Shown here piece after piece: positions 23,838-61,968 of a DNA stretch of 64,000 nucleotides. The position numbers were made by a program, and so were the translations under genes. The stretch is from NCBI GenBank assembly GCA_905182015.1, contig CAJIZT010000008.1:57801-121800 (forward strand), in the 5' to 3' direction. A model generated the notes under the pieces. It was not told where the DNA came from. It searched no databases and saw nothing but the letters and a program-made list of their open reading frames with translations. Origin of the DNA: an alpha proteobacterium MED-G09 (GTDB lineage: Bacteria; Pseudomonadota; Alphaproteobacteria; MED-G09). The first letter of the stretch is position 1. Each line of letters begins with the position of its first letter.

Positions 23838-23852
23838 TTTATTAACCGCTAA

Positions 23853-24827: not shown

Positions 24828-24853
24828 TTTTATTATCCCTTACTGATTTTAAT

Positions 24854-25204: not shown

Positions 25205-25216
25205 TCTCCTATAAAA

Positions 25217-25762: not shown

Positions 25763-25795
25763 AGTAAACCCCCTTTATTTTATTAAGACCACTCC

Positions 25796-31269: not shown

Positions 31270-32703
31270 ATGGGAAAAATCGACATACATAGTCTAGCGA
31301 TTGATGGAAAAGATCAAAAAAATCTAAGAGGCGATCCGATAACAAATGATCGCTACTTTTCTAAAGATTTTATGACAAAAGAATGGGACAATATGTGGAC
31401 TAAGGTCTGGCTAATAGCTGGCAGAGAAGTTCAAATTAAAGAGCCCGGTGACTATATTGTTCATGACCTTATAACAGAATCTGTAATTATTGTTAGACAA
31501 GACGATGGATCAATAAAAGGCTTCTATAATAGCTGTGCCCACAGAGGTCAGAGACTTGTTAATTTTGATAGCTCACAAGATTCTTTTAGATGTCCCTATC
31601 ATGATTGGCAATTTGGATTAAACGGAGATGTAATTGGCTGCCCAGATCCCGATGACTTTCCTGAAGGAAGTCCAATCGGAAAAAGAAAATTAGTAGAGGT
31701 TCGGGTAGATAGCTGGGATGGTTTTATTTTTTATACTATGAGTGACGAGGCGCCTGAGCTTTTAGAGTATCTAGATCCTTTGCCTGAAATTTATAAAAAT
31801 CATAATTTTAAAGATCAGATTAGAGCTCAATGGGTAAGAGTAGAGCTAGATGTTAATTGGAAATATTTTTGTGATAATTTTAACGAGTCATACCACACAA
31901 GATTTGTGCACCCTCAAGTTCCTTCAGTAATAGATCAAGATCATTTTACTTCAAGATATGAAATGTTTCCTAAAGGTCATGCAAGAATTGTCCAAATGGG
32001 TCGGCCTTCTTTGCGTGATAGAATTCCTGAAGGTGAAGATCATCCCTTTAAAATGCTTCTGGAGGACTGGGGGATAGATATAACCAAATATCCTGATTAT
32101 GAAACACTTTCTGAGCAAGGGTGGGTAGACCTAAAGGAAGCCAAAAGAAAAAATTATAAAGAAAAAGGTTATCATCATTATGAAAATCTCTCAGATGAAG
32201 AGTTAACTGAAAGTCCTTTTCAATTTATTTTTCCAAATATTGCCATGGGTGTTCAAGCAGACGGCTGCATTCTTTTAAATTGGTTCCCTCATCCGACAGA
32301 TCCTGAAAAATGTTTTTTTGATCTTTGGGACATGGGTTATCCAATCGGTGGTGCAGCGAAAGGAATAGGTAAAACAGGTAGAGAGAACGATCAAGAATTT
32401 ACTTCAACATCAGCAGGTATAGGTAAAAAAGATAGTTACGTTGGGGAATTTGTTAGTCGTACTAAAGTAAATCCAGTTAAACTTCAAGAAGTTGAATTAG
32501 ATTTTCGTGATTATGATGGAGGGAAAGGTGTTGAAGATCTATGGGATCATGTTGTTTATCAAGACTGGCAGCTTACAGATGGTTTAAGGCGCGGCGTTAG
32601 ATCTAGAGGGTATCAAGAACCTTATCTTGCGTCTCAAGAGACAAGAGTAAGATTTTTTCATGAAAAACTTCATGATTATTTAAACGGAAAACCACCGAAA
32701 TAA
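31270..32703 (+). CDS. Rieske non-heme-iron oxygenase alpha subunit (paralog B).
   Basis: FYNSCAHRGQRL...CPYHDWQF, and NFNESYHTRFVH. Confidence 0.85.
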   Translation: MGKIDIHSLAIDGKDQKNLRGDPITNDRYFSKDFMTKEWDNMWTKVWLIAGREVQIKEPGDYIVHDLITESVIIVRQDDGSIKGFYNSCAHRGQRLVNFDSSQDSFRCPYHDWQFGLNGDVIGCPDPDDFPEGSPIGKRKLVEVRVDSWDGFIFYTMSDEAPELLEYLDPLPEIYKNHNFKDQIRAQWVRVELDVNWKYFCDNFNESYHTRFVHPQVPSVIDQDHFTSRYEMFPKGHARIVQMGRPSLRDRIPEGEDHPFKMLLEDWGIDITKYPDYETLSEQGWVDLKEAKRKNYKEKGYHHYENLSDEELTESPFQFIFPNIAMGVQADGCILLNWFPHPTDPEKCFFDLWDMGYPIGGAAKGIGKTGRENDQEFTSTSAGIGKKDSYVGEFVSRTKVNPVKLQEVELDFRDYDGGKGVEDLWDHVVYQDWQLTDGLRRGVRSRGYQEPYLASQETRVRFFHEKLHDYLNGKPPK

Positions 32704-32752
32704 AATTTTTATTCAAAATATAATAAATTCTTAATTTGTAGGAGGGTAAAGA

Positions 32753-33268
32753 ATGACTAAAATAGCAAATATAGATACATTATTAGCTGAGCAGGCAATA
32801 AGGCAAGCTGTAACAGCGTATTCCAGAGGATGTGACCGTTGTGATTTGGATATCTTTAAGTCCGCGTTTCATAATGACGCCGAAGTAAAATATGGAACTT
32901 ACGATGGCCATTATGAAAAATTTTGTGAAGATATTGTAGAAGGAAATTTAACTCTCCAAGATACCTCTCACACAATTATTAATGAGCATTATACTATTGA
33001 TACCGCCTCCAATAAAGCGTCGGGAGAAGTTTATGTTTTAGCATTTTGGGCTGTAGGCGGACATAACTATACATGCTCTGGGCGTTATATCGATAAGTAT
33101 GAATCCAGAAATGACGATTGGAGAATTACATTTCGTCAATACGTCTATGACTGGAGTAGGACTACAGAATATTGCGGAGATGATCCAAACAAGCTATTTG
33201 AGGGGTTAATCTACCGAGGCACACAAAACAAAAATGATCTTTCTTATAAAATATTAAATGAAAAATAA
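32753..33268 (+). CDS. SnoaL_4/NTF2-like protein (partner of paralog B).
   Basis: QAVTAYSRGCDRCDLDIFKSAFHNDA...GRYIDKYESRNDDWRITFRQ. Confidence 0.6.
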   Translation: MTKIANIDTLLAEQAIRQAVTAYSRGCDRCDLDIFKSAFHNDAEVKYGTYDGHYEKFCEDIVEGNLTLQDTSHTIINEHYTIDTASNKASGEVYVLAFWAVGGHNYTCSGRYIDKYESRNDDWRITFRQYVYDWSRTTEYCGDDPNKLFEGLIYRGTQNKNDLSYKILNEK

Positions 33269-33272
33269 GATA

Positions 33273-34532
33273 TTATTTTTTTAAGAATTTAATTGGTAAC
33301 TCTTTCATCTGATGAATATATAAACTTGAATGATGAGGAATCTCGGGTAGCGGTCTAGCAAGCTCTATATTTTTTAATCTTTCAAATAAGTGTATGAATG
33401 CAGTTTTCATCTCTGCTCGCGCAAGCATTGCTCCAACACAATGATGGGGGCCCGATCCAAAAGCTAAATGTTTACCAACATCCTTACGTTCAACATTAAA
33501 CTCTTCAGGATTTGTAAATATTTCTTCATCCCTATTAAATGACGCATACCTTACTAGCAAAACGCTTCCCTTCTTAATACTCTCTCCATCAATCTCAGTG
33601 TCTTCTGTTACAGTTCGAAAAAGGCCCTGAACAGGTGTTTCAAATCTGATAACCTCCTCAACAAAGTTAGGTATAAGGTCTATATCTTCAATGATTTTAT
33701 TCATTTGTTTGGGATGTTTCAATAAAAGCCAAAGTCCGTGCGCTATTGAACTTGTGGTTGTCTCATTGCCTCCGGCTAATAATTGAGCAACCAGCCCTTG
33801 AAGCTCATCATTAGTTAGGTTCTCACCTCCATCAAGCTTAAGGTTTACTAATTCAGATATAATGTCATCTGTTGGATTTTTTCTCTTATCATTGAATATT
33901 TTATCAAAATAATGTTGGGACTCTGCCTCCAGGTGAGCAGCTTTCTTCATTTCTTCTACGTTTGCAACCCCGAACGAAACAATCATTGCATCTGACCATA
34001 ACTTTAGTTTCGGGAGCATTGATCTTGGTACACCCAGCTGGTCGGCAATAATTGTAGATGGAATTGGAACCGCATAATCATTAACAAACTCACACTCGCC
34101 TTTCTCTATAAAGGAATCAATTAAGTCATTCACGACTTTTGAAATATAAGGCTGCATCTCTTTAACTCTACTAGATGTAAACGCTTTGTTTAATAATTTT
34201 CTATATTTACTGTGTAGAGGTGGGTCTGTTCTTTGAAGTGTCTCCACAAAAGACCCCACACCATAATTCTTAATAATCTCCGCATGTGCCTTAATGCCTT
34301 CGTCTTCATAGCTATCGTGCTGGGTAGGTTTATTAGAAAACTTTTTTGTATCAAGAAGAATTTGTCTTCCATCTTTATATTTTGTGATCATATAAAAGCC
34401 TAAATCAGGCATTTTATAGACTGGGCATTCTGCTCGAAGATTCTTATAGCTCTCATATGGGCAACTTTGAATCTTGGGATCCATAAAATTTATATTTTTT
34501 ATTAAAGAGCTCTGCTGATTTTTTTCTTTCAT
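33273..34532 (-). CDS. Cytochrome P450 (paralog 1).
   Basis: Heme-thiolate loop FGSGPHHCVGAMLA, an ExxR motif (EEVIRFETP), and an I-helix AGGNETT. Confidence 0.85.
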   Translation of the reverse strand: MKEKNQQSSLIKNINFMDPKIQSCPYESYKNLRAECPVYKMPDLGFYMITKYKDGRQILLDTKKFSNKPTQHDSYEDEGIKAHAEIIKNYGVGSFVETLQRTDPPLHSKYRKLLNKAFTSSRVKEMQPYISKVVNDLIDSFIEKGECEFVNDYAVPIPSTIIADQLGVPRSMLPKLKLWSDAMIVSFGVANVEEMKKAAHLEAESQHYFDKIFNDKRKNPTDDIISELVNLKLDGGENLTNDELQGLVAQLLAGGNETTTSSIAHGLWLLLKHPKQMNKIIEDIDLIPNFVEEVIRFETPVQGLFRTVTEDTEIDGESIKKGSVLLVRYASFNRDEEIFTNPEEFNVERKDVGKHLAFGSGPHHCVGAMLARAEMKTAFIHLFERLKNIELARPLPEIPHHSSLYIHQMKELPIKFLKK

Positions 34533-39803: not shown

Positions 39804-41051
39804 TTATCTTTTTCTAAATTTAATATGAAGCTCTTTTAGCTGATGTAAAAAAATACTCGGTTGATGAGGAATATCTGGTAGGTCTTTAGCTAGCTCGATA
39901 CCATCAATACGATCGAAGAAATGTTTAAAGGCTGCTAGCATTTCCGCCCTAGCCAAACTTGCCCCGATACAATGATGAGCGCCTGATCCAAAAGCAAGAT
40001 GTTTTCCAACATCTTTTCGTTCCACATTAAATATCTCAGGATCCTCGAATATATCTTCATCTCTATTTAATGCAGCATATCTGACCAGAAGAGTACTTCC
40101 TTTTGGGATCTTTACACCTCTCATCTCAGTATCGACTGTTGCCGTTCTAAAAAGGCCTTGAACAGGGGTCTCATAACGAATAGTTTCCTCAATAAATTTT
40201 GAAATAAGATCGTTATTTTCCATAACTTTTTTCATTTGCTCTGGGTGTCTTAATAATAACCACATTCCGTGCGCTATTGAACTTGTTGTTGTCTCATTTC
40301 CACCTGTTAATAATTGATTGATCAGATCTTGAAGCTCATCTTCTGTTAACTTTCTTTCTCCATTAAAGTCAGCATTAACTAACTCTGATATAATATCGTC
40401 TGTAGGTTTTATTCTTTTTTCCTCAAAAATACCTTTAAAATAATGTTGGGACTCAACCTCAAGACGAGCCGCATTTTCCATCTCCTCCACACTCGCCATC
40501 CCGCTAGCCGGAATTAACATTGCATCTGACCAGGATTTAAATTTACCTAAGTACTCTCTTGGAACACCTAACTGATCAGCAATAATTGTACACGGAATAG
40601 GCACGGCATATTCTGAAACAAAATCACATTCGCCGTTATCAATAAACCCATCAATTAAGTCATTGACGACACCAGAAATGTAAGGATTCATTTCCTTAAC
40701 CCTGCTTAAGCCAAAGGCTTTATTTAAAAGTTTACGATATTTTGTATGAATTGGCGGATCTGTTCTTTGGAGTGTCTCTGGTCTTTTACCAAAACCCTCG
40801 GTATTCATTATTTCATGATGGCGTTTTACGCCTTCACTTTCATAGCCTTGTTGATGTGAGTATGTATTAGAAAAAGTAACGGTATCTTTCATAACCATCC
40901 TAGCATCATCATACTTCGTGATCATATAAAATCCTACCTCTGGCATCTTATAGACAGGACACTCGGATCTAAGGGTTTTATAAGCTTCATAAGGACAGCT
41001 TTGTGTTGCCGGGTCCATAAAGCTTATCGATTCTAAGTCTAATTTACTCAT
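39804..41051 (-). CDS. Cytochrome P450 (paralog 2).
   Basis: FGSGAHHCIGASLA, an ExxR motif (EETIRYETP), and TGGNETT. It shares about 60% identity with paralog 1 by eye. Confidence 0.85.
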   Translation of the reverse strand: MSKLDLESISFMDPATQSCPYEAYKTLRSECPVYKMPEVGFYMITKYDDARMVMKDTVTFSNTYSHQQGYESEGVKRHHEIMNTEGFGKRPETLQRTDPPIHTKYRKLLNKAFGLSRVKEMNPYISGVVNDLIDGFIDNGECDFVSEYAVPIPCTIIADQLGVPREYLGKFKSWSDAMLIPASGMASVEEMENAARLEVESQHYFKGIFEEKRIKPTDDIISELVNADFNGERKLTEDELQDLINQLLTGGNETTTSSIAHGMWLLLRHPEQMKKVMENNDLISKFIEETIRYETPVQGLFRTATVDTEMRGVKIPKGSTLLVRYAALNRDEDIFEDPEIFNVERKDVGKHLAFGSGAHHCIGASLARAEMLAAFKHFFDRIDGIELAKDLPDIPHQPSIFLHQLKELHIKFRKR

Positions 41052-48190: not shown

Positions 48191-49543
48191 ATGAATATTA
48201 CAGATATTGATTGGAAAAAAAGAAACGCCGAAAACTGGAAGCAGCAAAACCTTAGCAATACTCTTGTGGATGGAAGCCGTTACAATTCTCAGGAATTTAT
48301 GAATAAGGAATGGCAGTATATGTGGCCGAAAGTTTGGCTATTGCTTGGACGAGAGGAAGAGGTACCCAATCCAGGTGATTATCAAATGGAAGAATTTGGA
48401 AAAGAAAGCTTCTTGATGATACGACAAGACGACGGTTCCATAAAATCATTTTACAATGTTTGTCAGCATAGAGGTGCAAGACTGACGTTTAATGACCAGG
48501 GAACTGCCGAAACATTCAAATGTCCTTATCACGGTTGGAAATGGAGAAAGGATGGAAAACTTATCGAAGCTCAAGATGCTGAGGATTTTCCTCAAGGAAA
48601 TCCTTGCGATAATTTAACTCTAGAGGAAGTAAAAACAGAAACATTTGCAGGTTTTATTTGGATTAATATGGATAAGAATGCCTGTACATTAAAAGAATGG
48701 CTCGGACCTGTATGGGAGGACTGGGAGGCTTATGAAATTCATAAGTGGAAAAGATATGTAGCGCAAACAGTAAATATGCCATGTAATTGGAAGATCGTAT
48801 TAGATAATTTTAATGAATCTTATCACCTAAACACCGTTCATGCGCCAGAAAAAGCAGTAACAAAAAAGAGAATGCCTAGTGGCGTTGATACAAGTTACCG
48901 TAATACACAATTTGATCTAGCAACTGAAGGTCATAATAGGATGATTATGAAGGCCGGTTATGGACCAGCTGGATCATTTGAAGATGGAGGAATAATTGAG
49001 GATCCACTTGCATCTGTAATGAAAGACTGGGGCCTTAATCCAGAAAAATATTCAGGAAAAGGTTTTGATACTAGGGAGGCAATTCAAACTGCTAAAAGAA
49101 AATTAGGCCCGGAAAGAGGTTACACACATTATAAAAATTTACGTGATGAACAACTCACTGATGCATTTCATTATACTCTATTTCCAAATTTTGCTGTTTC
49201 ATTGTGGGCGGATGGATTTCATTTTTTAAGGGCAAGGCCGCATGCAACAGACCCTGAAAAATGTATCTTTGATAACTGGTGGTATTCAAGTAATCCAGAA
49301 AATGAAACATCACCTATTCGAAGTACTGTTGGAGTTCACGAAAGAGGAAAATTTGCTGATTTTCCTGATGCCTTTGAACACGGAGAAAAAAGTCTTGGTC
49401 AAACAATTGATCAGGATGCAGTTGTCTTTATTTTCCAAAAATTTGGTTTAAGGTCTAGGGGTTTCAATGGTGCATATTTCGCTGGCCAAGAAAAAAGAGT
49501 GCATCGTTTTCATCAGATGATTGAATCATATTTTGAGGAATAA
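48191..49543 (+). CDS. Rieske non-heme-iron oxygenase alpha subunit (paralog C). The tracked ORF starts at 48086, inside the crotonase gene; the ATG at 48191 has an AAGGA ribosome-binding site.
   Basis: FYNVCQHRGARL...CPYHGWKW and NFNESYHLNTVH. Confidence 0.85.
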   Translation: MNITDIDWKKRNAENWKQQNLSNTLVDGSRYNSQEFMNKEWQYMWPKVWLLLGREEEVPNPGDYQMEEFGKESFLMIRQDDGSIKSFYNVCQHRGARLTFNDQGTAETFKCPYHGWKWRKDGKLIEAQDAEDFPQGNPCDNLTLEEVKTETFAGFIWINMDKNACTLKEWLGPVWEDWEAYEIHKWKRYVAQTVNMPCNWKIVLDNFNESYHLNTVHAPEKAVTKKRMPSGVDTSYRNTQFDLATEGHNRMIMKAGYGPAGSFEDGGIIEDPLASVMKDWGLNPEKYSGKGFDTREAIQTAKRKLGPERGYTHYKNLRDEQLTDAFHYTLFPNFAVSLWADGFHFLRARPHATDPEKCIFDNWWYSSNPENETSPIRSTVGVHERGKFADFPDAFEHGEKSLGQTIDQDAVVFIFQKFGLRSRGFNGAYFAGQEKRVHRFHQMIESYFEE

Positions 49544-49546
49544 AGA

Positions 49547-50065
49547 ATGAATGATAAAAAATTAGAACGTCATATAGCTAAATCAGAAATTTATGAATTA
49601 GTTTGTATGTATATGAGGGGTCTTGATCGTCTTGATGGGCCGCTTTTAAAATCAGTTTTTCATGAAGATGCTTATTGTGACTACGGATTCGTTAAAACTG
49701 ATCCTGATACATTTTCTAAATTTTGTATGGATGCACTTAAAGAACATATTGCAAATCACCATATGATTGGAAATTCATTAATTGAATTTGATGAAAGTGA
49801 GGATATGGCATTTGGAGAAATCTACTTTAATGCCTATCACAAAACTATAGTTGAAGGAGTTAATACTGATGTAATTATAGCAGGTAGGTATCTTGATCGT
49901 TATGAAAGAAGAAATGGAATATGGAAAATCGCGTATAGATCAGAAGTTAATGACTGGTCAAAAACTGAACCTACAAACGATCCCTACTTCAATGATTCTG
50001 ATTGTCACAGGGGTGGTCGTCAAGATGATCCTGTATATAAAAGAAATAAGATGTATCGGCCTTAA
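49547..50065 (+). CDS. SnoaL_4/NTF2-like protein (partner of paralog C).
   Basis: YELVCMYMRGLDRLDGPLLKSVFHEDA...GRYLDRYERRNGIWKIAYR. Its tail HRGGRQDDPVYKR resembles that of the 25217 gene. Confidence 0.6.
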   Translation: MNDKKLERHIAKSEIYELVCMYMRGLDRLDGPLLKSVFHEDAYCDYGFVKTDPDTFSKFCMDALKEHIANHHMIGNSLIEFDESEDMAFGEIYFNAYHKTIVEGVNTDVIIAGRYLDRYERRNGIWKIAYRSEVNDWSKTEPTNDPYFNDSDCHRGGRQDDPVYKRNKMYRP

Positions 50066-52957: not shown

Positions 52958-54343
52958 TTATTTCCCTGCACTCACCTTTGACCACAAAGAATCTTCACTC
53001 ATCCAGTTATCAACCCAATTATGGAAATGTTGTAACCTTCCTTCATCATTGCTTAAAACTGCCTTATTAAATCCACGAGAATGCATCCCTGCCTGCATAT
53101 CGTTCAAATAATGTATGTCTTGATCGATTGTGGCCGTCAAAGAATTTCTTCCCTCGACAACATCCTCTCGAGTAAAGACCTCATGTTCGACTCTCGAAGA
53201 AGAGTATTGGTACTCATATGAACCCGGGAGTAATTCCAAACCCTTATCTTTATCGCGGATCTTACTTTCTGGGATCATTAAGCTAAATTTAGTAAATATA
53301 CATTTATTGGGATCTGAAGGGTGAGGTCTTGGACCATAAAACCAAACCCTTTCTGCATGAATCGTCATAAAAAGGTTGGGAAAAATATCATACTGAAAGA
53401 CATCAGAAATCTGTTCATCTGTTAACTCAGAATAATCAAATCCAAGTTTTTTTCCAATTTTTCTTTTTTGTTTTTGAATTGCAGCCCTTATATCTGGGAC
53501 TTTACCAATATAATCATCGCTATTTATCTCTAAGCCCTTGAGGTATTGCGCCATATATTCGGGTGGTTCATCTGGCATTGGATATCTCGGATTCATAACT
53601 GGGCTCTCAACACATGTGTGTGTGTGACCAAACGGCCAAAGATAGTTTTGCGCATCACAACAATCGACAAAACTAGCATGTTGAGGATGTATAAAATCAA
53701 CGTGATATTGTTCCAAAAAATTATCCCTAACAGTTTTCCAATTAGCGCCTAAGGTAACGCTTTGGTGTTTGACCAATTCCATATTTTCAAAGTGATAAGG
53801 ATCAAGCTGATTCATGATTTCACCTAGAAAAGTTTTTAAAGGAGCAGGATTAGGACTCATATTTATAAAAACCATACCTGCCCAGGATTCAGCATGAACT
53901 GGCTTTAAAGAACTTTCCTTGCAAGAAACGCCTCCAGAAAATAGATCTTCGTCAGGAACCTTTTTTAATTCACCATCCAATCCATAGGTCCATCCATGAT
54001 AAGGGCATGTTACTTGCTTAACCCAGCCCAGATCTAAGGTTAGAATCTTATTTCCTCGGTGCTGACAAGCATTATAGAAGGCAGAAATATTATTATTTTC
54101 GTTGCGTGTGATAATTATGGATTCCCTTCCTACATCGTAAATGAAAAAGTCACCTGTTTCTTTTAAGTCGGATTCTAAGCCGGCAAAAATCCAACATTTA
54201 GTCCATATTTTTTCCCATTCCATTTTCATAAAATCAGGACACGTATATCTATCACTAGAAAGTGAGGCGTTATATTCTGGGTCAGCAGTAATATCTTCAG
54301 AAAAATTTATAGAATCAAAACGTTGTGGCAATATTTTCTCCAT
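52958..54343 (-). CDS. Rieske non-heme-iron oxygenase alpha subunit (paralog D; no NTF2 partner).
   Basis: FYNACQHRGNKIL...CPYHGWTY and NFLEQYHVDFIH. Confidence 0.85.
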   Translation of the reverse strand: MEKILPQRFDSINFSEDITADPEYNASLSSDRYTCPDFMKMEWEKIWTKCWIFAGLESDLKETGDFFIYDVGRESIIITRNENNNISAFYNACQHRGNKILTLDLGWVKQVTCPYHGWTYGLDGELKKVPDEDLFSGGVSCKESSLKPVHAESWAGMVFINMSPNPAPLKTFLGEIMNQLDPYHFENMELVKHQSVTLGANWKTVRDNFLEQYHVDFIHPQHASFVDCCDAQNYLWPFGHTHTCVESPVMNPRYPMPDEPPEYMAQYLKGLEINSDDYIGKVPDIRAAIQKQKRKIGKKLGFDYSELTDEQISDVFQYDIFPNLFMTIHAERVWFYGPRPHPSDPNKCIFTKFSLMIPESKIRDKDKGLELLPGSYEYQYSSSRVEHEVFTREDVVEGRNSLTATIDQDIHYLNDMQAGMHSRGFNKAVLSNDEGRLQHFHNWVDNWMSEDSLWSKVSAGK

Positions 54344-54509
54344 AGTAAATAATATCTAAATATTAGCTAAAAAATAAAATAGTACAAATTAAAAAGAATA
54401 ACAAAGATTGATCTATGATACTTGTTACGTATCAATTAAAAATTCTAACTTGACCAATTAGTATTTGAGGTTTTGAATACCAATTCAATTAAGAGGGGAG
54501 ACAGATATA

Positions 54510-54809
54510 ATGATTGTGGTTAATGCAAGAGCAAGGGCAAGCACTGAATCTATTTTAGTATTAAAAAATGTTATTAATACTCTAGAGATAGAAACAAAGA
54601 AGGAAAAGGGATGCATTGATTATGCTTTCAGTGTTGATATCAATAACCCAAATATGCTTAGAATTTCTGAATTATGGGAAGATCTCAAATCATTACAGGA
54701 TCACCTTGAAACCAAACATGTAGAAGATTTTAGGGCGGCAATGGCTCAAAATCCAATAGATGTAGAGGCTCATTTTTATGAAGCCAAAGAAATTTCTTAT
54801 CCAGGATAG
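54510..54809 (+). CDS. ABM/Dabb domain protein (paralog of the 24854 gene).
   Basis: GCIDYAFSVD...LRISELWEDLKSLQDHLETKHVEDF parallels the 24854 protein. Confidence 0.5.
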   Translation: MIVVNARARASTESILVLKNVINTLEIETKKEKGCIDYAFSVDINNPNMLRISELWEDLKSLQDHLETKHVEDFRAAMAQNPIDVEAHFYEAKEISYPG

Positions 54810-54814
54810 ATTTT

Positions 54815-55687
54815 ATGAAAAATAAAATAAGTACCTGGCAGGTTGGTAAAGTTAAAGTCACAAGAATAATCGAAGGTGAAAGAGCTGGCCCTATGTTTGT
54901 TGTACCTGATGCTATTCCAGAAAATATTATAAAAATGCCATGGTTACAGCCATATTTTTCTGATAGCGAGGGCAACACAATTGTAAGTGTCCACGCCCTT
55001 ATCCTAGAAACACCAGATAAATGCATAATTGTCGATACGTGCTTAGGAAATGATAAAGAAAGACATATTCCATCATGGAACAAGTTACAAACAAGATTTC
55101 TAGAAGATCTAGAAATAGCAGGCTATCAAACTAAAGATATTGATACTGTGTTATGTACCCACCTTCATACTGATCATGTGGGCTGGAATACTGTTCTTGT
55201 AAATGATAAATGGGAACCAACATTTAAGCATGCTGATTATTTATTCGGAAAAGAAGAGTGGAATTATACAGAAAAACAACTAGGCAATCCTTTATATGCA
55301 GAATTCATAAATGACTCAATAATTCCTATAATTGACTCAGGTCTTGTTAGATTTGTGGAACTTGATGAAAGAATTTGTGAAGAAATAATATTGGAGCCTA
55401 CACTGGGGCACACCCCTGGACATGTGAGTATAAAAATAAATTCAGAAGGCCAACGAGCTGCTATAACAGGAGATTTCCTTCACCACCCCTGTCAGATGGA
55501 GAAACTTGACTGGATATCTTCTGCAGACTGGGATCCTGAGCTAGCAAAAGAAACTAGGAGGCGAAAGCTATCGGATTACGCCAATGAAAGGACTCTAGTT
55601 TTTGGAACGCACTTTGCTTCTCCGTCAGCTGGATATGTAATTAAAAAAGACGATCATTTTGTTTTTGAAGTGCAACATCCGCTATAA
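54815..55687 (+). CDS. MBL-fold metallo-hydrolase (lactonase-like).
   Basis: HxHxDH motif CTHLHTDHVGW, and downstream H and D ligands (GHTPGH, TGDFLHH). Confidence 0.75.
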   Translation: MKNKISTWQVGKVKVTRIIEGERAGPMFVVPDAIPENIIKMPWLQPYFSDSEGNTIVSVHALILETPDKCIIVDTCLGNDKERHIPSWNKLQTRFLEDLEIAGYQTKDIDTVLCTHLHTDHVGWNTVLVNDKWEPTFKHADYLFGKEEWNYTEKQLGNPLYAEFINDSIIPIIDSGLVRFVELDERICEEIILEPTLGHTPGHVSIKINSEGQRAAITGDFLHHPCQMEKLDWISSADWDPELAKETRRRKLSDYANERTLVFGTHFASPSAGYVIKKDDHFVFEVQHPL

Positions 55688-55723
55688 AAATAAACTAATA
55701 CTTAAAATTAAAGGAGTAAGCCA

Positions 55724-57109
55724 ATGAGTCTATCTGATAATATGAAGCCTGGAGAAGCCAGATGCCCCGGGCATCCAACTACTAAGGAATTAATAGGAAA
55801 TGATAGGGGCGGCGCACCAAAACCGTTGCTTGAAGATTCTTATGAGTTCCTAGGTGATGATGATATTCCGTATGAGAGATATACATCAGAAAAATTTGCA
55901 AAAGCAGAGGATGAGAGGCTCTGGTCAAGGGTTTGGCAATGGGCTTGCAGGGAGGAACACATTCCAGAACCAGGGGATTATTATGTATATGATATTGGCG
56001 ACCGATCAGTGTTAATTGTAAGAACAGAAGACAGTGAAATCAAAGCATACTATAATTCCTGCCTACATAGAGGCACCCAATTAAAGCCTGCAAATAGCTC
56101 TGGTTTTTGTAATGAGCTTAAATGTCCCTTTCATGGATGGACATGGTCCCTTAAAGGTAAATTAGAATCCTTGCCTTGTGATTGGGATTTTCCTCATGTA
56201 AAAAAAGAGGAATTTTCTCTTCCTGAAGTTAAGCATGCTGTTTGGGGTGGTTTCATTTTTATTAATTTTGATTCTGACGCAAAACCACTTGATGAATACT
56301 TGGGAGTCCTTCCGAATCATTTTAAAAATTGGAAATTAGAAGACCGCTACATTGAAACACATGTAGTAAAAAAACTTCCAGCAAACTGGAAGGTTTCCTC
56401 AGAAGCATTTTTAGAGGCCTACCATGTTTTGGAGACTCATTCTGAAGGCGTCTATACCGCTGGAGATGCAAATGCTGACTATGATATATTTGGCGATCAT
56501 ATTTCAAGATTTATCCATACTATCGGATATACCAGCCCTCACATAACTGAAAACCGTCCAAGTGAACAAGAAATACTTGATATGCTTCTGGGTAAAAGAA
56601 CAGACGAGGGGTCTGGCAGAGTTTTGCCAGAGGGGTCAACTGCCAGAGAGATTTATGCTGAGCATGTTCAGGGGGCAATGAAAGAAAAATATAAACAAGA
56701 TTTCTCTAACCTAACTGTAACCGAAACAATTGACTCAATAGAATACTTTACATTCCCGAATGCTTTCTTCTTTCCTGGTCTTCAACTGTCAATGGTTTAT
56801 AGGTTTAGACCAAACGGTGTCGATGGAGCTTTGTTCGATCTTCTTTTTTTAAGACCTAAGCCAATTGATGGACCATGTCCCCCACCACCAGAACCTTTTC
56901 ATCTGGAAGTAGACGATAGCTATACAAAATGCCCTGGAACAGAATTTTTAGGTGCTGTTTATGACCAAGATACAAATAACTTGCTATCACAAACGAAGGG
57001 ATTTAAATCAGGCTTTAAAAAGGGACAGTCACTTGGTAACTACCAAGAGGCTAGAACAAGGCATTTCCATCAAACTGTAGATAAATACTTGGAGGAAAAT
57101 AATGGGTAA
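55724..57109 (+). CDS. Rieske non-heme-iron oxygenase alpha subunit (paralog E).
   Basis: YYNSCLHRGTQL...CPFHGWTW and EAYHVLETH. Confidence 0.85.
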   Translation: MSLSDNMKPGEARCPGHPTTKELIGNDRGGAPKPLLEDSYEFLGDDDIPYERYTSEKFAKAEDERLWSRVWQWACREEHIPEPGDYYVYDIGDRSVLIVRTEDSEIKAYYNSCLHRGTQLKPANSSGFCNELKCPFHGWTWSLKGKLESLPCDWDFPHVKKEEFSLPEVKHAVWGGFIFINFDSDAKPLDEYLGVLPNHFKNWKLEDRYIETHVVKKLPANWKVSSEAFLEAYHVLETHSEGVYTAGDANADYDIFGDHISRFIHTIGYTSPHITENRPSEQEILDMLLGKRTDEGSGRVLPEGSTAREIYAEHVQGAMKEKYKQDFSNLTVTETIDSIEYFTFPNAFFFPGLQLSMVYRFRPNGVDGALFDLLFLRPKPIDGPCPPPPEPFHLEVDDSYTKCPGTEFLGAVYDQDTNNLLSQTKGFKSGFKKGQSLGNYQEARTRHFHQTVDKYLEENNG

Positions 57110-57866
57110 ATTAGATGGCAAGGTTGCGGTAATACTAGGAGCGTCATCAATTGAAGGTTTGGGCGGAGTTATTGCAAGGTCATACGCTCATGAAGGTGCA
57201 AAAGTAGTTATAAGTGGACGCCGTCAAGAGCCCTTAGATCAATTGGCTGGCGAACTTAATGGAACAGCTCAGACTTGCGATATTACTGTAGATGGAGACA
57301 TAGAGAATCTATTTAAGGTGGCAAAAGATACTTATGGCAAGGTTGATATTGCAATAAATACTTCAGGGATGTATGAGCCAGGTAATCTAAGTGACCTAAC
57401 AAGGGATCACTTAAGAAAATATTCAGAAGTAAGCTTTGTAGGGCCAACAATCTTTATAAGAGAGGCTGGGAATATAATGGAGAATGGCGGCTCAATTATA
57501 ACAACGACATCAGTTACAGTGGAGCTATCAGCTGTTGGTTTAGCTGGATATGTTGGAACTAAAGCAGGGGCCGATAAGATCGTCCAAATTGCTGCAAAAG
57601 AATACCAGCATAAAAGTTTGAAGATTAACTCTCTATCGCCTGGGTTGGTTGATACACCAATGACAGGAGCGTTATTTGATATGGACGGACCAATTAAGGC
57701 GATGACAAAAGAATCACCCCTGGGCAGACTCGCGAATGTACAAGATGTTGCAAATACTGCAGTATGGATGGCTTCTGATGATTGTTTTACTACTGGTGAT
57801 TTAATCCGAGTAAGCGGAGGAATCCAGCTTAACCGTCTGCCAACGGCAGAAGAAATGTATGAATAA
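57102..57866 (+). CDS. SDR-family oxidoreductase.
   Basis: N-terminal AVILGASSIEGLGGVIA. The size and pattern fit an SDR; its start overlaps the Rieske stop. Confidence 0.75.
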   Translation: MGKLDGKVAVILGASSIEGLGGVIARSYAHEGAKVVISGRRQEPLDQLAGELNGTAQTCDITVDGDIENLFKVAKDTYGKVDIAINTSGMYEPGNLSDLTRDHLRKYSEVSFVGPTIFIREAGNIMENGGSIITTTSVTVELSAVGLAGYVGTKAGADKIVQIAAKEYQHKSLKINSLSPGLVDTPMTGALFDMDGPIKAMTKESPLGRLANVQDVANTAVWMASDDCFTTGDLIRVSGGIQLNRLPTAEEMYE

Positions 57867-57900
57867 AATTTTATAAACTATAACAAAAGGGAGACAAGTT

Positions 57901-58677
57901 ATGACAGGAAGATTAGAAGGAAAAGTTGCAATTATAACTGGGGCAGCTATGGGCTTAGGGGCTGCTGATGCAGAGCTTTTTGCTTCAGAGGGTGCGAAGG
58001 TTGTAATAACAGATATCGCAGAAACTGAGGGTCAGGTTCTAGCAGAAAAACTAGGCGGTATATTTTTCAAACAAGATGTAACTGATGAAGATAGATGGAT
58101 AGAAATTATATCTGAAACAGAAAAAAAATATGGTCGTATTGATATACTTGTTAATAATGCAGGAATTGTTCACGTAGGGGATCCAGAAAATCAAACAACA
58201 GAGGAATATAGAAGGACAATGGCCGTTCATATGGACAGCACCTTTTTTGGTTGCAAGTATGTTATTCCCGTCATGGCAAAAACTGGTGGGGGATCGATTG
58301 TCAACATGTGTTCAATAGCTTCAATCCAAGGTGAGTCTTATGTGGCTGCATATTGCGCTGCAAAAGGCGCCATTGAAGCATACAGTAGAGCTGTTGCAGT
58401 TCACTGTGGTCTCGCAAAAAATGGTGTGAGATGTAATACAATTCATCCTGCTGGAATTGCCACACCTATGGTAGCCGGAGTCCCCGCACAGATGGCAGCA
58501 AAATTTGGTGCATCTCCTGTTCAGGACGCACCAGTTGATATAAACAAGGTTGGTGAGCCTCTTGATATTGCAAATGCTGCTTTATATCTTGCCTCAGATG
58601 AATCAAAATTTGTAAATGGCGCACAGCTTCGTGTCGATAATGCAATGTCAGTTGTTTCTGGTAATATGCCTGAATAA
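57901..58677 (+). CDS. Classical SDR-family oxidoreductase.
   Basis: TGAAMGLGAA, NNAG, and catalytic YCAAKGA (YxxxK). Confidence 0.85.
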   Translation: MTGRLEGKVAIITGAAMGLGAADAELFASEGAKVVITDIAETEGQVLAEKLGGIFFKQDVTDEDRWIEIISETEKKYGRIDILVNNAGIVHVGDPENQTTEEYRRTMAVHMDSTFFGCKYVIPVMAKTGGGSIVNMCSIASIQGESYVAAYCAAKGAIEAYSRAVAVHCGLAKNGVRCNTIHPAGIATPMVAGVPAQMAAKFGASPVQDAPVDINKVGEPLDIANAALYLASDESKFVNGAQLRVDNAMSVVSGNMPE

Positions 58678-58695
58678 ATTGGATTTGAAACTTTA

Positions 58696-59403
58696 ATGAC
58701 AAATATTATTAATTATTTTGATGATGATGTTCGACTTGAGGGTATGTTCTTTCCTTTGGCAGGACAAGAAGATGCCCCAGTCGTATTAGTTGTACCAACT
58801 TATGCTGGAAGAGATCAATTTACCTTAGATAAAGCAAAAGCAATGAATAATCTTGGTTATGCTGGATTTGCTGTCGATATGTATGGTGAAGCAAAGACCG
58901 GTGACTCTCCAGAGGAAAGTATGGAGTTAATGAGTCGTATCATGACTAATCGACCCAAACTTCAAAAAAGAATGTTACTGGCAATAGAGGCTGCAAAATC
59001 AGCTTCTGGCGTTGATAACTCAAAAATTGCAAGTATAGGGTTTTGTTTTGGAGGACTTTGCGTTTTAGATATTGCCAGGACTGGGTTGGATATTTCTGGT
59101 GTTGTATCTTTTCATGGTATTTTTAATCAACCGGGAAACACTGAGGGTAATAAGATTAGAGCCAAGATTCTTGTTCTTCATGGAAATGATGATCCAATGG
59201 TGCCCCATAAGGATGTTAATGGACTCGCAAATGAATTGACTGCAGCTAAAGCAGATTGGCAAATTCATGCTTATGGCTCTACATCTCATGCATTTACCAA
59301 TAAAGAGGCAAATTCTCCGGAAATGGGAATGGCCTATAATGTAAATTCCGATAACCGCTCATGGAAATCAATGAAAGATTTTTTAAAAGAAGTAATTGGC
59401 TAA
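58696..59403 (+). CDS. Dienelactone hydrolase family protein (carboxymethylenebutenolidase-like).
   Basis: Nucleophile elbow IGFCFGG (Cys), and downstream D and H residues (LHGNDDP, TSHAF). The product is 235 aa. Confidence 0.8.
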   Translation: MTNIINYFDDDVRLEGMFFPLAGQEDAPVVLVVPTYAGRDQFTLDKAKAMNNLGYAGFAVDMYGEAKTGDSPEESMELMSRIMTNRPKLQKRMLLAIEAAKSASGVDNSKIASIGFCFGGLCVLDIARTGLDISGVVSFHGIFNQPGNTEGNKIRAKILVLHGNDDPMVPHKDVNGLANELTAAKADWQIHAYGSTSHAFTNKEANSPEMGMAYNVNSDNRSWKSMKDFLKEVIG

Positions 59404-59432
59404 ATAACTATCTAGGGATATACAATATAAAA

Positions 59433-60152
59433 ATGAGTGAAGAAGAAAAACTTTCTATACAAGCTTTTGTGATACCGGTCACACCCTTTCAGCAAAATTG
59501 CTCTATACTATGGTGCACTGAGACTAAGCTAGGGGCAGTGATTGATCCGGGGGGGGATATAGATCAGATTCTTTACGCCATCAATAAGTATGATGTAAAA
59601 ATTGAAAAAATCCTTATTACTCATGCACACTTAGACCACGCTGGAGCGACAGCTGAACTTTCGCGACAACTTGATGTCCCTATAGAAGGCCCCCACAAAG
59701 ATGATATGTTTTTAATCGAAAGTCTCGAAGAGCAAGGTAAAAAATATAATTTTTCTCCCGCTGAATCATTTCAAACATCTAGATTTCTGGAAGGTGGTGA
59801 TGAGGTGAGTGTTGGAAATCAAATATTTGGAGTAAGGCATTGCCCAGGTCATACCCCTGGTCATGTGATATTCTTCAATAAAGAATCTAAGATAGCGGCT
59901 GTTGGAGATGTATTATTTCAAGGATCAATCGGAAGGTCTGATCTTCCGCGAGGTGATCACGAACAGCTAGTTAAATCAATAGTAAATGAACTCTGGCCCT
60001 TAGGTGACGAAATTAGATTTATACCAGGACACGGTCCAATGTCTACTTTTGGAAATGAAAGACTAACAAATCCGTATGTATCAGATTTTGCTCTAGGAAT
60101 AGATCGAGAGGTATCTGATTTGGCTAAAAAACAAGAAATATCCACGGAGTAG
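59433..60152 (+). CDS. MBL-fold hydrolase, hydroxyacylglutathione-hydrolase (GloB)-like. The tracked ORF starts at 59361; the likely start is MSEEEK.
   Basis: THAHLDHAG (HxHxDH) and GHTPGH. Confidence 0.75.
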   Translation: MSEEEKLSIQAFVIPVTPFQQNCSILWCTETKLGAVIDPGGDIDQILYAINKYDVKIEKILITHAHLDHAGATAELSRQLDVPIEGPHKDDMFLIESLEEQGKKYNFSPAESFQTSRFLEGGDEVSVGNQIFGVRHCPGHTPGHVIFFNKESKIAAVGDVLFQGSIGRSDLPRGDHEQLVKSIVNELWPLGDEIRFIPGHGPMSTFGNERLTNPYVSDFALGIDREVSDLAKKQEISTE

Positions 60153-60156
60153 ATCT

Positions 60157-61410
60157 TTGATTCTTTCAAGCAGCCGTCTCAATAGACGAGTTGGACTTTC
60201 TTTTCTGTACTTCATCCAAGGTATTCCTCAGGGTTTAATTTATTTTGCTTTATTAGATTGGCTCGCTTCTATTAAATTCTCTATCAGTGATATAGCTATA
60301 ATAACATCTATAGCTTCACTGCCCTGGGTCCTAAAATTTATCATAGGGCCTTTTGTTGATTCCTATCAAACCTCAGGTATGGGGAAGAGAAAACCGTGGA
60401 TAATGGGATCTTTGATGTTTCTATCTATAGCCTTCTTTTTATCGGCTAAGATTGTTTCAGTTTATGGGGTGCCGTCACCTTTGATATTGGGGTCAATTTT
60501 ATTCCTTGTTATGCTCTCTACGTCAGTCTTAGATGTAGCCACAGATGGTTTGGCAATTGATGTTCTTGATCAAAAAGAAAGGGGTTTGAGTAATGGTCTT
60601 ATGTGGGGATTTAGAACTCTAGGTGTTAGCTTAGCTGCAATACTAGGATCTTATTTAATAAAAACCCATGGATTAGATCATGCACTTTTAAAGTTTGGAT
60701 TATTAAATGTAATATTTTTACTTTTAATTGTTCCCTTAAGAGAAATTAAAGATGATAAATATTTTTCTTTTATACGTTCCGGTAAAAAAAAGGAGCTAAA
60801 ATTAAAACAAACTATAAAAACTCTATATAAGAATTCAATCACACCATCCATGCTTTTATTAATAATTTTTTGCCTCACATCTAATATTACCTCAGGAATG
60901 CATTATGTAAGCGTTTCCAATCTCTATATTAATTCATCAGGCTGGGATCATGAAGCCTTAACAAAAATACGCTCAATGGGGTTATATATTGGTATTTTTT
61001 CAGCTCTAGCAGGCGGCTATCTGTCCGACAAGCACAGCCCTTATAGAATTATACTAATATCACAAATCCTTATAGCTACGACAATCTTATCCTTTGTTAT
61101 TGCGGGAAATAGTATCTCAGTCTTCTACGTAGGATCAATATTACTTGTATTATTATCCGCTCTTGGCTCTTTTATTATGTCTGCCAGTTTATCGCTTTGC
61201 ATGGGGCTAACATTTAAAGCTATAGCTGCAACACAATTTGCTTTTTTAATGAGCATTAGGCACTTGTCACGCATATCGGGGGAATGGCTAGCTGGTCTTT
61301 TAGATTACCTAAGGGTGTCCACTTTTGATATTTACTTAATAATGTTTTTTCTTTCATTTTTACCTATTATTGTAATACATAAAATGAGAGTTTTAGAAAA
61401 AACTAGATAA
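60157..61410 (+). CDS. MFS-superfamily transporter.
   Basis: 12 predicted TM segments, RVGLSFLYFIQGIPQG near the N-terminus, and an internal GKRKPWI loop motif. Confidence 0.7.
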   Translation: MILSSSRLNRRVGLSFLYFIQGIPQGLIYFALLDWLASIKFSISDIAIITSIASLPWVLKFIIGPFVDSYQTSGMGKRKPWIMGSLMFLSIAFFLSAKIVSVYGVPSPLILGSILFLVMLSTSVLDVATDGLAIDVLDQKERGLSNGLMWGFRTLGVSLAAILGSYLIKTHGLDHALLKFGLLNVIFLLLIVPLREIKDDKYFSFIRSGKKKELKLKQTIKTLYKNSITPSMLLLIIFCLTSNITSGMHYVSVSNLYINSSGWDHEALTKIRSMGLYIGIFSALAGGYLSDKHSPYRIILISQILIATTILSFVIAGNSISVFYVGSILLVLLSALGSFIMSASLSLCMGLTFKAIAATQFAFLMSIRHLSRISGEWLAGLLDYLRVSTFDIYLIMFFLSFLPIIVIHKMRVLEKTR

Positions 61411-61433
61411 AATATTTTTTACTTATTATAAAC

Positions 61434-61476
61434 TTGACACCTACTCACTCAACGTTATATTTGCGCCCCTAGGGGG
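61434..61476 (+). promoter_or_regulatory. Putative sigma70 promoter plus a 5'-leader palindrome upstream of rplU-rpmA.
   Basis: TTGACA, a 16-nt spacer, then TATATT. The palindrome CCCCTAGGGGG follows at 61466..61476. Confidence 0.3.
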
Positions 61477-61512
61477 AATTTTACTTCCTTTATTTATAAG
61501 TGGATATTTAAA

Positions 61513-61968
61513 ATGTACGCAGTAATTCGTAGCGGCGGAAAACAGTATAAAGTTTCAAAAGATGACGTCATCTCAGTTGAAAAATTAGCTGGTGAAGCAG
61601 GTGATAAAATTGATATTAACGAAGTTCTTATGATTGCTGGCCATGGAGATCCTATTGTTGGAAATCCAGTTATTAAAGGGGCAGTTGTTAACGTAGAAGT
61701 TGTTAAACAAACTCGTGCAGAAAAAATAATTGTCTTTAAGAAGAAAAGAAGAAAAAATTATAGAAGAAAGAACGGACACCAACAGCATTTAACTATGTTA
61801 AAAATTGTTGATATTAAAGAGAAAGAAACTAAAAAATCATCTACAGTAAAGACAGCGGCTTCTCCTAAAAAAGATGAAGCTCCAAAGAAAAAGACTGCAG
61901 CTAAAAAGACTGTACAGAAAAAAGTAGCAAAAACTGCTGCTAAAGCTAAGTCTGTAAAGAAAGATTAG
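61513..61968 (+). CDS. rplU: 50S ribosomal protein L21 with a Lys/Ala-rich C-terminal extension of about 50 aa.
   Basis: [15 protein letters not shown]-terminus. The tail is [33 protein letters not shown]. Confidence 0.9.

Follow-up and report, generated by a model that had tools for sequence, protein, structure and literature searches.

Between positions 54510 and 61410 of a 64-kb stretch of DNA from an alphaproteobacterium of the MED-G09 lineage (contig CAJIZT010000008.1; the whole 64 kb is referred to here as the window), eight open reading frames (ORFs) lie one after another on the plus strand. They encode Rieske E, one of five Rieske oxygenase alpha subunits (A to E) in the window, together with an ABM-fold protein, two metallo-beta-lactamase-fold hydrolases (MBL1 and MBL2), two short-chain dehydrogenases/reductases (SDR1 and SDR2), a dienelactone hydrolase (DLH) and a major facilitator superfamily (MFS) transporter. 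Do these genes form a single catabolic pathway? A first-pass annotation had read them as an operon resembling aromatic or chloroaromatic catabolism, in which DLH and the two MBL enzymes would act on lactone or thioester intermediates. We compared the string with related loci inside and outside its clade, and the neighbours found there lend no support to such a route. On balance, we favour the view that three blocks came to lie side by side in one lineage with a gene-dense genome, and that the string is not a single conserved catabolic operon. Within it, the association of Rieske E with an SDR recurs across phyla.

The source of the DNA is an uncultured, abundant marine alphaproteobacterium of the PS1/OCS116 group. 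The nearest relatives of Rieske E are encoded in an uncultured PS1-clade single-cell genome (84% identical; locus L009) and in OCS116-cluster/Rhodobiaceae genomes (73%). An identical Rieske E protein is found in 71 blocks of a metagenome collection, and its close clusters hold hundreds of member sequences.

Gene content and spacing of the string

The ORF listing and Pfam domain calls place all eight genes in the same direction, and the order and families given in the first-pass annotation stand. At the head is the ABM-fold protein (54510..54809, +; 99 amino acids (aa); Pfam ABM, E=5.5e-10), whose gene is divergent from that of Rieske D (52958-54343, minus strand). It is followed by MBL1, which is lactonase/organophosphate-hydrolase-like (54815..55687, +; 290 aa; Lactamase_B, E=3.6e-23), and by the Rieske E alpha subunit (55724..57109, +; 461 aa; Rieske, E=2e-16, and Ring_hydroxyl_A, E=6.7e-20). 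SDR1 (57102..57866, +; 254 aa; adh_short_C2, E=5.5e-48) overlaps the Rieske E gene by 8 nt, as had been noted, and precedes SDR2, a classical SDR (57901..58677, +; 258 aa; adh_short_C2, E=2.5e-55). The string ends with the DLH-family cysteine hydrolase (58696..59403, +; 235 aa; DLH, E=6e-42), the YcbL-like MBL2 (59433..60152, +; 239 aa from the ATG at 59433) and an AmpG/BT1/Acatn-like MFS transporter with a TTG start (60157..61410, +; 417 aa; MFS_1, BT1 and Acatn). Catalytic motifs are intact: HxHxDH in both MBL proteins, YxxxK in both SDRs, and SIGFCFGG in DLH, the motif noted earlier for its cysteine nucleophile. The classification by hidden Markov models that the first-pass annotation called for upheld the families named there. 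Specific names were tested against NCBIfam equivalog cut-offs; none of the eight proteins reaches one, and hence no specific enzyme name can be assigned to any of them.

Two details of the ORF listing merit comment. The MBL2 gene had been described as starting inside the 3' end of the DLH gene, which is probably an artefact of taking the longest ORF, from 59361. Similarity to YcbL begins at residue 37 of that long ORF, and an in-frame ATG lies at 59433. An 85% identical homologue has 239 aa, and the OCS116 orthologues have 240 aa and start past the DLH stop. In L009, the stop-to-stop frame of MBL2 opens 78 nt after the end of the DLH gene. Separately, an antisense TTG-start ORF of 117 aa spans the junction of the ABM and MBL1 genes (54730-55083, -); it is uncalled by metagenome gene callers and is probably spurious.

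Gaps within the string range from -8 to 36 nt. Across the window, 95% of the sequence is coding and the median gap between same-strand genes is 17.5 nt; runs of genes with short gaps include unrelated housekeeping genes, such as rnpA-yidC-engB-argB-HAD-dapD-dapE. Thus, tight spacing is the norm in this genome and carries no functional information. A promoter and terminator scan of 54300-61600 returned counts equal to the shuffled expectation, so transcription units are not definable from it. The best sigma-70-like plus-strand site of the region (61434-61461) falls beyond the string, inside the 102-nt gap between the MFS gene and rplU. The string had been called an operon; with gaps at the window norm and scans at chance level, that claim is unproven, and on sequence grounds co-transcription of the eight genes is possible.

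Conservation inside and outside the PS1/OCS116 clade

All PS1/OCS116 loci hold the order Rieske E-SDR2-DLH-MBL2-MFS-rplU-rpmA-obg, the last three being the genes downstream of the string, and all have an ABM orthologue. SDR2 is the best-conserved string protein in the clade (78-89% identical) and the MFS transporter, present in every clade locus, the least (43-57%). Other members come and go. SDR1, found in the window and (81% identical) in L009, is missing from the OCS116 loci. MBL1, which has 76-78% identical orthologues in OCS116, is missing from L009, where the ABM gene sits immediately before Rieske E. In OCS116, an opposite-strand TonB receptor gene is inserted between ABM-MBL1 and Rieske E. 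Among the loci compared, the full array is kept only inside PS1/OCS116.

Beyond the clade, we surveyed 76 loci encoding Rieske E relatives that are 52-64% identical. These are mainly from Ilumatobacteraceae and other Acidimicrobiia, Halieaceae, Cellvibrionaceae, Pseudomonas, Aromatoleum, Zoogloea, sphingomonads and Candidatus Microthrix, with one Dehalococcoidia metagenome-assembled genome (MAG). Within 10 kb of the Rieske gene, DLH was found at 2/76 loci, MBL2 at 1/76, and MBL1 and the MFS gene at 0/76 each. For an SDR gene within 5 kb, the count is 45/76 loci (59%); DLH loci of 8 kb or more, taken as a comparison set, gave 4/33 (12%). The gene immediately downstream of the Rieske E relative encodes an SDR 39-42% identical to SDR2 in Pseudomonas jinjuensis, Geopseudomonas, Aromatoleum, Zoogloea and one uncultured gammaproteobacterial MAG. 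The comparative genomics proposed in the first-pass annotation therefore divides the string: the array is kept in PS1/OCS116 and not beyond, and the pairing of Rieske E with an SDR alone survives as an association that recurs across phyla. Other frequent neighbours outside the clade are a SnoaL_4 gene (within 5 kb at 34/76 loci, 45%), another Rieske alpha gene (within 5 kb at 32/76, 42%) and a gene for a small vicinal oxygen chelate (VOC) protein (within 10 kb at 41/76, 54%). Acidimicrobiia relatives also have acyl-CoA dehydrogenase and enoyl-CoA hydratase genes nearby, a context more in keeping with the breakdown of aliphatic or alicyclic compounds activated as acyl-CoA than with dihydroxylation of arenes.

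Close relatives of DLH stand alone elsewhere. C117 (in GFCFGG), D165/D166 and H198 are invariant in 27 homologues, leaving the Cys-Asp-His triad intact, and the best solved relatives are 8vb3, 7jiz and P91 (4zi5). Relatives at 47-56% identity come from Methylobacter, Methylococcaceae, Porticoccaceae and many metagenome contigs. Three annotated contexts of such relatives contain kdsB, a phosphatase gene and gyrA; kdsB, accA and tilS; and a mixed set. Of some 50 metagenome loci (4 kb or longer) with a DLH relative, none had MBL2, MFS, Rieske E or MBL1 beside it; among the metagenome loci as a whole, the array was retained in three OCS116-like loci only. Chlorocatechol-pathway genes were absent from all the domain-annotated DLH-relative loci inspected. 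In the tfdCDEF and clcABDE chlorocatechol pathways, the classical home of DLH, the enzyme likewise has a cysteine nucleophile with Asp and His. Unlike those clusters, the string has its DLH in a window without chlorocatechol 1,2-dioxygenase, chloromuconate cycloisomerase or maleylacetate reductase, and the closest relatives of that DLH are stand-alone genes of methanotrophs and other Gammaproteobacteria, with kdsB, gyrA or accA as neighbours. From these homologies, DLH is probably an independent, widely conserved gene.

MBL2 gives a similar picture. Its similarity to Salmonella YcbL (2xf4, deposited as a hydroxyacylglutathione hydrolase) is ungapped, with 103/206 identical residues (50%; E=6e-74), and MBL2 has about 12 extra N-terminal and 21 extra C-terminal residues. 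Its HxHxDH motif reads HAHLDH. Against the NCBIfam GloB model, MBL2 scores 88 bits and does not reach the cut-off of 200.8; we take YcbL to be a subfamily distinct from GloB. Relatives at 60-68% identity are spread across Proteobacteria, and both of the two contexts inspected are unrelated to the string. MBL2 thus appears to be a stand-alone gene like these relatives, yet here it lies between the DLH and MFS genes. We considered a dedicated pathway thioesterase as its role and, on the contexts at those two loci, rejected it as the default. The MFS transporter scores 87.7 bits against a cut-off of 350 for AmpG (TIGR00901), and equivalog models give 51-56 bits against 656-756.

MBL1, with the motif HLHTDH, scores highest against the NCBIfam models YtnP (69 bits, cut-off 425), AidB (64, cut-off 360) and 4-pyridoxolactonase (44, cut-off 325), and its best solved relatives are 4xuk, OPHC2 (4le6) and AidC. 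By sequence similarity, which is low, it belongs to the wider lactonase/methyl-parathion-hydrolase/OPHC2-like group.

The three blocks that we propose would be as follows. Block 1 would be the ABM gene with or without MBL1, the latter an optional, clade-specific add-on. Block 2, comprising Rieske E, SDR1 and SDR2, would be the working module. Block 3, DLH, the YcbL-like MBL2 and the MFS gene, would lie between the catabolic genes and rplU-rpmA-obg; we infer its independence from the contexts of DLH and MBL2 relatives, and DLH and MBL2 would be broadly conserved stand-alone genes, probably with general esterase/thioesterase or detoxification roles. The first-pass annotation had itself named the alternative of separate housekeeping roles in an unconserved cluster, and this is largely what we found, with a YcbL-like MBL2, DLH relatives that stand alone and an array confined to one clade.

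Rieske E, its relatives and its possible partners

The [2Fe-2S] ligands of Rieske E (C113-L-H115...C134-P-F-H137) and its mononuclear iron motif (E231-x2-H234-x4-H239) are invariant in 31 homologues; D414 and D416, both invariant, are candidates for the distal carboxylate. The best NCBIfam models are GbcA, HcaE, AndAc and BenA, all far under cut-off, and both these models and solved structures align to residues ~43-272 only, that is, from the Rieske domain to just past the 2-His motif. A search of plasmid proteins recovered full-length homologues on sphingomonad megaplasmids (up to 48% identical) and a Rieske protein 36-37% identical on pTML1 of Pseudoalteromonas sp. SANK 73390. The pTML1 record names no tml genes; we take this gene to be tmlW from the layout of the cluster and from its position before a non-ribosomal peptide synthetase (NRPS) gene, and the 127-aa gene that follows it is presumably tmlZ. 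Rieske E and the putative TmlW are 37% identical over residues 21-456 (289 bits), whereas Rieske E matches the window paralogs A-D at 29-33% and 138-174 bits. As judged by these comparisons, Rieske E belongs to a widespread, uncharacterised oxygenase family of which MupW/TmlW is the closest characterised relative.

Pseudoalteromonas sp. SANK 73390 is a thiomarinol producer (PMC8827043). The Rieske non-haem oxygenases MupW and TmlW, which are >55% identical to each other, convert a non-activated C8-C16 alkane bond to an epoxide, presumably by way of an alkene, and act with the small partners MupZ and TmlZ, whose catalytic residues are Tyr41 and Glu54 (PMC8827043). Given 37% identity to TmlW against >55% between MupW and TmlW, Rieske E represents a related subfamily and not an orthologue. 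The Rieske plus Ring_hydroxyl_A architecture is common to Rieske E and to the MupW/MupZ and TmlW/TmlZ systems of tetrahydropyran ring formation in mupirocin and thiomarinol. A small ABM-fold gene, weakly MupZ-like, lies by the oxygenase gene (adjacent in L009, one gene off in the window), and neither those systems nor the string has an adjacent beta subunit gene. Unlike MupW and TmlW, Rieske E lacks a polyketide synthase (PKS)/NRPS context: the window has no trans-acyltransferase PKS cluster, and no PKS, NRPS or acyl carrier protein genes. It also has no MupT-like ferredoxin, and the conserved N-terminal PGEARCPG of Rieske E is not seen in TmlW residues 1-60. For Rieske E, with TonB receptors and symporters encoded in the window, catabolism is the likelier setting.

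The ABM protein shows a weak likeness to the small partners. ABM genes adjoin Rieske alpha genes in several other taxa, and the second ABM gene of the window adjoins paralog A. Thirteen ABM proteins encoded next to Rieske genes all share E32, G34, C35, Y38, E54, W56, L62 and H65. The match to the presumed TmlZ is weak (blastp E=9e-5 over 40 residues) and places Y38 and E54 opposite TmlZ Y45 and E58; the presumed TmlZ in turn matches Pfam ABM weakly (E=0.01).

Both SDR genes had been suggested to encode cis-diol dehydrogenases, and this assignment finds no support in the better-conserved of the two. SDR2 carries TGAAMGLG, NNAG and Y151-x3-K155, and its nearest solved relatives are the R-specific alcohol dehydrogenase of Lactobacillus brevis and the 3alpha/20beta- and 3beta/17beta-hydroxysteroid dehydrogenases, with no cis-diol dehydrogenase among its solved matches at E<=1e-40. 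SDR1 has Y150-x3-K154 and an atypical glycine motif, GASSIEGLG. No cis-diol dehydrogenase appears in the top 25 NCBIfam models of either protein.

These results bear on an explanation that we regard as unlikely, in which Rieske E would cis-dihydroxylate arenes as a conventional dioxygenase does, with SDR1 or SDR2 serving as the cis-dihydrodiol dehydrogenase and with the beta subunit, ferredoxin, reductase and ring-cleavage dioxygenase encoded elsewhere in the genome. Rieske E shares its Rieske and 2-His motifs with the bph, nah, tod and hca dioxygenases, its N-terminal ~200-230 residues align with BphA1, NahAc and HcaE, the Ring_hydroxyl_A domain and the HcaE, BenA and AndAc matches fit an arene enzyme, an SDR gene follows the Rieske alpha gene in a way that recalls hca and bph gene order, and homologues lie on sphingomonad catabolic megaplasmids. 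However, the NCBIfam matches are far under cut-off and cover the N-terminal half only, the C-terminal substrate domain is unaligned with any solved aromatic dioxygenase, and the closest characterised full-length relative oxidises an alkane. SDR2, with its alcohol and hydroxysteroid dehydrogenase matches, is not BphB-like. Unlike the bph/nah/tod/hca systems, the 64 kb yielded neither a Ring_hydroxyl_B beta subunit nor a ferredoxin, a reductase or an extradiol dioxygenase. More broadly, its annotations show no Rieske- or plant-type ferredoxin or reductase of the kinds serving Rieske oxygenases or P450s, and its annotated ORFs have no VOC, LigB, cupin or intradiol ring-cleavage dioxygenase domain. 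The first-pass annotation was thus right that a ring-cleavage dioxygenase and a reductase are missing from the string, as they are from the annotated window, that Rieske E is without its canonical partners, and that the string is no canonical aromatic pathway. Its statement that there is no beta subunit applies to the string and needs qualifying for the window, where a SnoaL_4 gene directly follows three of the four other Rieske paralogs.

Could one of these three SnoaL_4 proteins serve as a beta-like subunit, as a variant of the arene explanation might have it? By domain annotation, the SnoaL_4/NTF2-like genes lie after paralogs A (25217-25762, -), B (32753-33268, +) and C (49547-50065, +). 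In P. jinjuensis (L008 1-320), a 529-aa protein fuses Rieske, Ring_hydroxyl_A and SnoaL_4 domains, which shows that oxygenase and NTF2-like partner physically cooperate in at least one lineage and which fits either a beta-subunit or a dehydratase role. Similarity to Ring_hydroxyl_B is negligible (E=0.0066, for one of the three proteins). The best matches of an AlphaFold model of the SnoaL_4 protein (predicted local distance difference test score, 77) are LinA, the bile-acid 7alpha-dehydratase BaiE and scytalone dehydratase, with putative dioxygenase beta subunits ranking just 27 and 44. In profile alignments, Y22, D27 and H72 line up with a Tyr, an Asp and a His in BaiE, and the latter two also with an Asp and a His in LinA, residues that we take to be catalytic in these enzymes. 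Going by the model, the SnoaL_4 proteins may be catalytic dehydratases rather than structural beta subunits, and we did not adopt the latter role.

VOC proteins, members of the superfamily that includes extradiol dioxygenases, are on one count a point in favour of the arene explanation. A small (~150 aa) VOC gene lies immediately downstream of the Rieske E relative in about 20 loci from Halieaceae, Cellvibrionaceae, Ilumatobacteraceae and other lineages (L007 (11395-11856), L015, L019-L021, L024-L030, L037, L038, L042, L044, L045, L049, L062 and L081). Against it, these proteins score best, weakly, with glyoxalase I, FosA and methylmalonyl-CoA epimerase models and not with catechol dioxygenases. 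They are absent from all PS1/OCS116 loci and from the window, in which tblastn with three VOC queries found no match.

Our preferred reading, that of three juxtaposed blocks, instead assigns the oxygenase step to an sp3 carbon or another non-classical position; we infer the class of substrate and the order of reactions from the TmlW relationship and the neighbouring families. Most likely, Rieske E would introduce a hydroxyl group or a double bond at a C-H or C-C position of an organic compound taken up by the cell, probably an aliphatic or alicyclic one, drawing electrons from a ferredoxin and a reductase whose genes lie outside the window. The new secondary alcohol would then be oxidised to a ketone by the neighbouring SDR or SDRs. 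The ABM protein would be an accessory that recurs beside Rieske genes and may process the oxygenase product as MupZ does for MupW.

Several observations weigh against this reading. Block 3 has stayed with Rieske E-SDR2 across PS1 and OCS116 while other genes came and went, over a divergence at which even the housekeeping protein Obg is just 63-66% identical, and its retained attachment could reflect selection for co-expression. The scan, at chance level, found no plus-strand terminator or strong promoter between the blocks. The MupW link is 37% identity to an enzyme that is biosynthetic, in a context that Rieske E does not share, and Pfam and NCBIfam place Rieske E nearest to aromatic ring-hydroxylating families. 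The small VOC partner could be a one-domain extradiol dioxygenase, which would point to aromatic substrates. An ABM gene lies within 5 kb in just 13% of the loci outside the clade. Lastly, the ABM profile reaches MupZ (6fxd) at E=0.0077, with generic ABM proteins (4dpo, YgiN) scoring far better; hence, the analogy between the ABM protein and MupZ is one of architecture, not orthology.

One operon, single genes and the rest of the window

That all eight genes form one dedicated non-canonical operon seems to us very unlikely. Rieske E would act on an aromatic or chloroaromatic-like compound, the SDRs would re-aromatise or oxidise the diol, DLH and the MBL proteins would hydrolyse lactones or thioesters, and the MFS transporter would move substrate or product. 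The shared strand, tight spacing and lack of an internal plus-strand terminator agree with this, as do the order retained in PS1 and OCS116, the lactonase-like character of MBL1 and the intact triad of DLH. Tight spacing, however, is genome-wide; DLH, MBL1, MBL2 and the MFS gene accompany Rieske E relatives at just 0-2 of the 76 outside loci; DLH and MBL2 relatives stand alone in non-degraders such as Methylobacter; MBL2 is an MBL hydrolase of YcbL-like type; inside the clade, MBL1 and SDR1 are dispensable; and the 64 kb encode no catechol-forming or ring-cleaving enzyme, cycloisomerase or maleylacetate reductase. A single pathway is possible only as a clade-specific recruitment, for which the retained gene order is the sole positive support.

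At the opposite extreme, and least credible to us, is the idea that the string means nothing beyond its single genes and that even Rieske E and the SDRs have nothing to do with each other: the genome is compact (95% coding, its gaps short throughout), catabolic genes are mixed with housekeeping genes and SDRs are very common proteins, but 59% of the 76 loci, from several phyla, have an SDR gene within 5 kb of the Rieske gene, against 12% in the comparison set, and in beta- and gammaproteobacteria an SDR gene lies immediately downstream of it, while in the string SDR1 overlaps Rieske E by 8 nt and SDR2 is the best-conserved protein in the clade.

The remainder of the window has much in common with the string. 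By domain annotation, the Rieske A region (22545-27145, -) continues with SnoaL_4, ABM, Amidohydro_2 and Amidohydro_1 genes, Rieske B and its SnoaL_4 gene occupy 31270-33268 (+), and Rieske C and its SnoaL_4 gene 48191-50065 (+); Rieske D is the gene divergent from the ABM gene. The five paralogs are only 29-40% identical pairwise and are hence ancient and not recent duplicates, and their accessory genes differ. Further genes encode two P450s, three TonB-dependent receptors, two GPH symporters, two amidohydrolases, a FAD_binding_2 oxidoreductase, an enoyl-CoA hydratase and one further SDR; the annotations obtained for the window include no transcription-factor domain. Housekeeping genes (kdsB, prephenate dehydratase, amt and rplU) are interspersed among the Rieske modules and GC content is uniform at 0.33-0.40, on which grounds we rejected a horizontally acquired island.

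Some other features of the window are recorded here. The two P450 genes (33273-34532, -, and 39804-41051, -) encode proteins that are 67% identical to each other; between them lie genes for a TonB receptor, a GFA-domain protein, a protein with a cytochrome c-like motif and a NosD/beta-helix protein, and a FAD_binding_2 oxidoreductase and an NmrA-like protein adjoin the group. Near the start of the window are a POR/POR_N protein, 2-oxoacid:ferredoxin oxidoreductase-like (521-2455, -), and a protein with Fer4_20, Pyr_redox_2 and two [4Fe-4S] clusters (2350-4140, -), a pair that is unusual for an aerobic marine alphaproteobacterium; their longest ORFs overlap by 106 nt, which suggests a mis-set start. 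Downstream of the string, ribosomal protein L21 (61513-61968, +) has 151 aa, with the Pfam domain on residues 1-101, leaving a C-terminal extension of about 50 aa; its OCS116 orthologues have 173 aa.

Multi-Rieske islands with a kit like that of the window, and with no assigned function, occur in Novosphingobium aromaticivorans (plasmid pNL2, SARO_RS18525-18595), Parahaliea and P. jinjuensis. Islands and window have in common a TonB receptor, a P450, Rieske alphas each with an NTF2-family partner, a FAD_binding_2 oxidoreductase and SDRs. The pNL2 island (L176, 142589-161929) comprises genes for a TetR regulator, a TonB receptor, NTF2 proteins, SDRs, a P450, three Rieske alphas, a VOC protein and a FAD oxidoreductase, and the first of its Rieske proteins shares 46% identity with Rieske E. 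Unlike the window, the islands have small VOC proteins, and those of pNL2 and Parahaliea also have TetR regulators; unlike the string, they are without DLH, MBL1, MBL2 and the MFS gene. A literature search confined to the pNL2 genes found no paper mentioning the proteins of that island, and searches for Rieske oxygenases of the PS1 clade, OCS116 dioxygenases and Rieske-SnoaL partners returned nothing usable. The pNL2 host is cultivable and may serve as a model; Parahaliea and P. jinjuensis are likewise cultivable.

A lesson of this locus is that in compact genomes tight co-directional packing is not evidence of a pathway, and DLH and glyoxalase-II-like genes in such a setting are not to be read as chloroaromatic catabolism. 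What remains of interest is a MupW-like group of Rieske oxygenases, with its small partner proteins, in marine bacteria that are abundant: much of the window consists of Rieske paralogs, TonB receptors, P450s and SDRs, in an organism common in ocean metagenomes. A broader proposal, which we put forward as speculative and rather doubtful, is that PS1/OCS116, marine Acidimicrobiia, Halieaceae and at least one Dehalococcoidia use MupW-like Rieske enzymes on non-activated C-H or C-C positions together with small catalytic partners. The partners would be ABM-fold proteins, BaiE/LinA-like NTF2 dehydratases or FosA/glyoxalase-I-like VOC proteins, replacing classical beta subunits. The compounds attacked would be aliphatic or alicyclic components of dissolved organic matter, for example terpenoids, sterols or carboxyl-rich alicyclic compounds. 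In PS1, block 3 would have been recruited for ester or thioester products, with DLH and MBL2 hydrolysing them and the MFS transporter exporting or importing them. If this were true, the string would be a genuine clade-specific pathway for recalcitrant marine carbon. Should MupW-like oxygenases indeed act on unactivated carbon of aliphatic or alicyclic compounds, they would be candidates for the enzymes with which the breakdown of recalcitrant marine dissolved organic matter begins.

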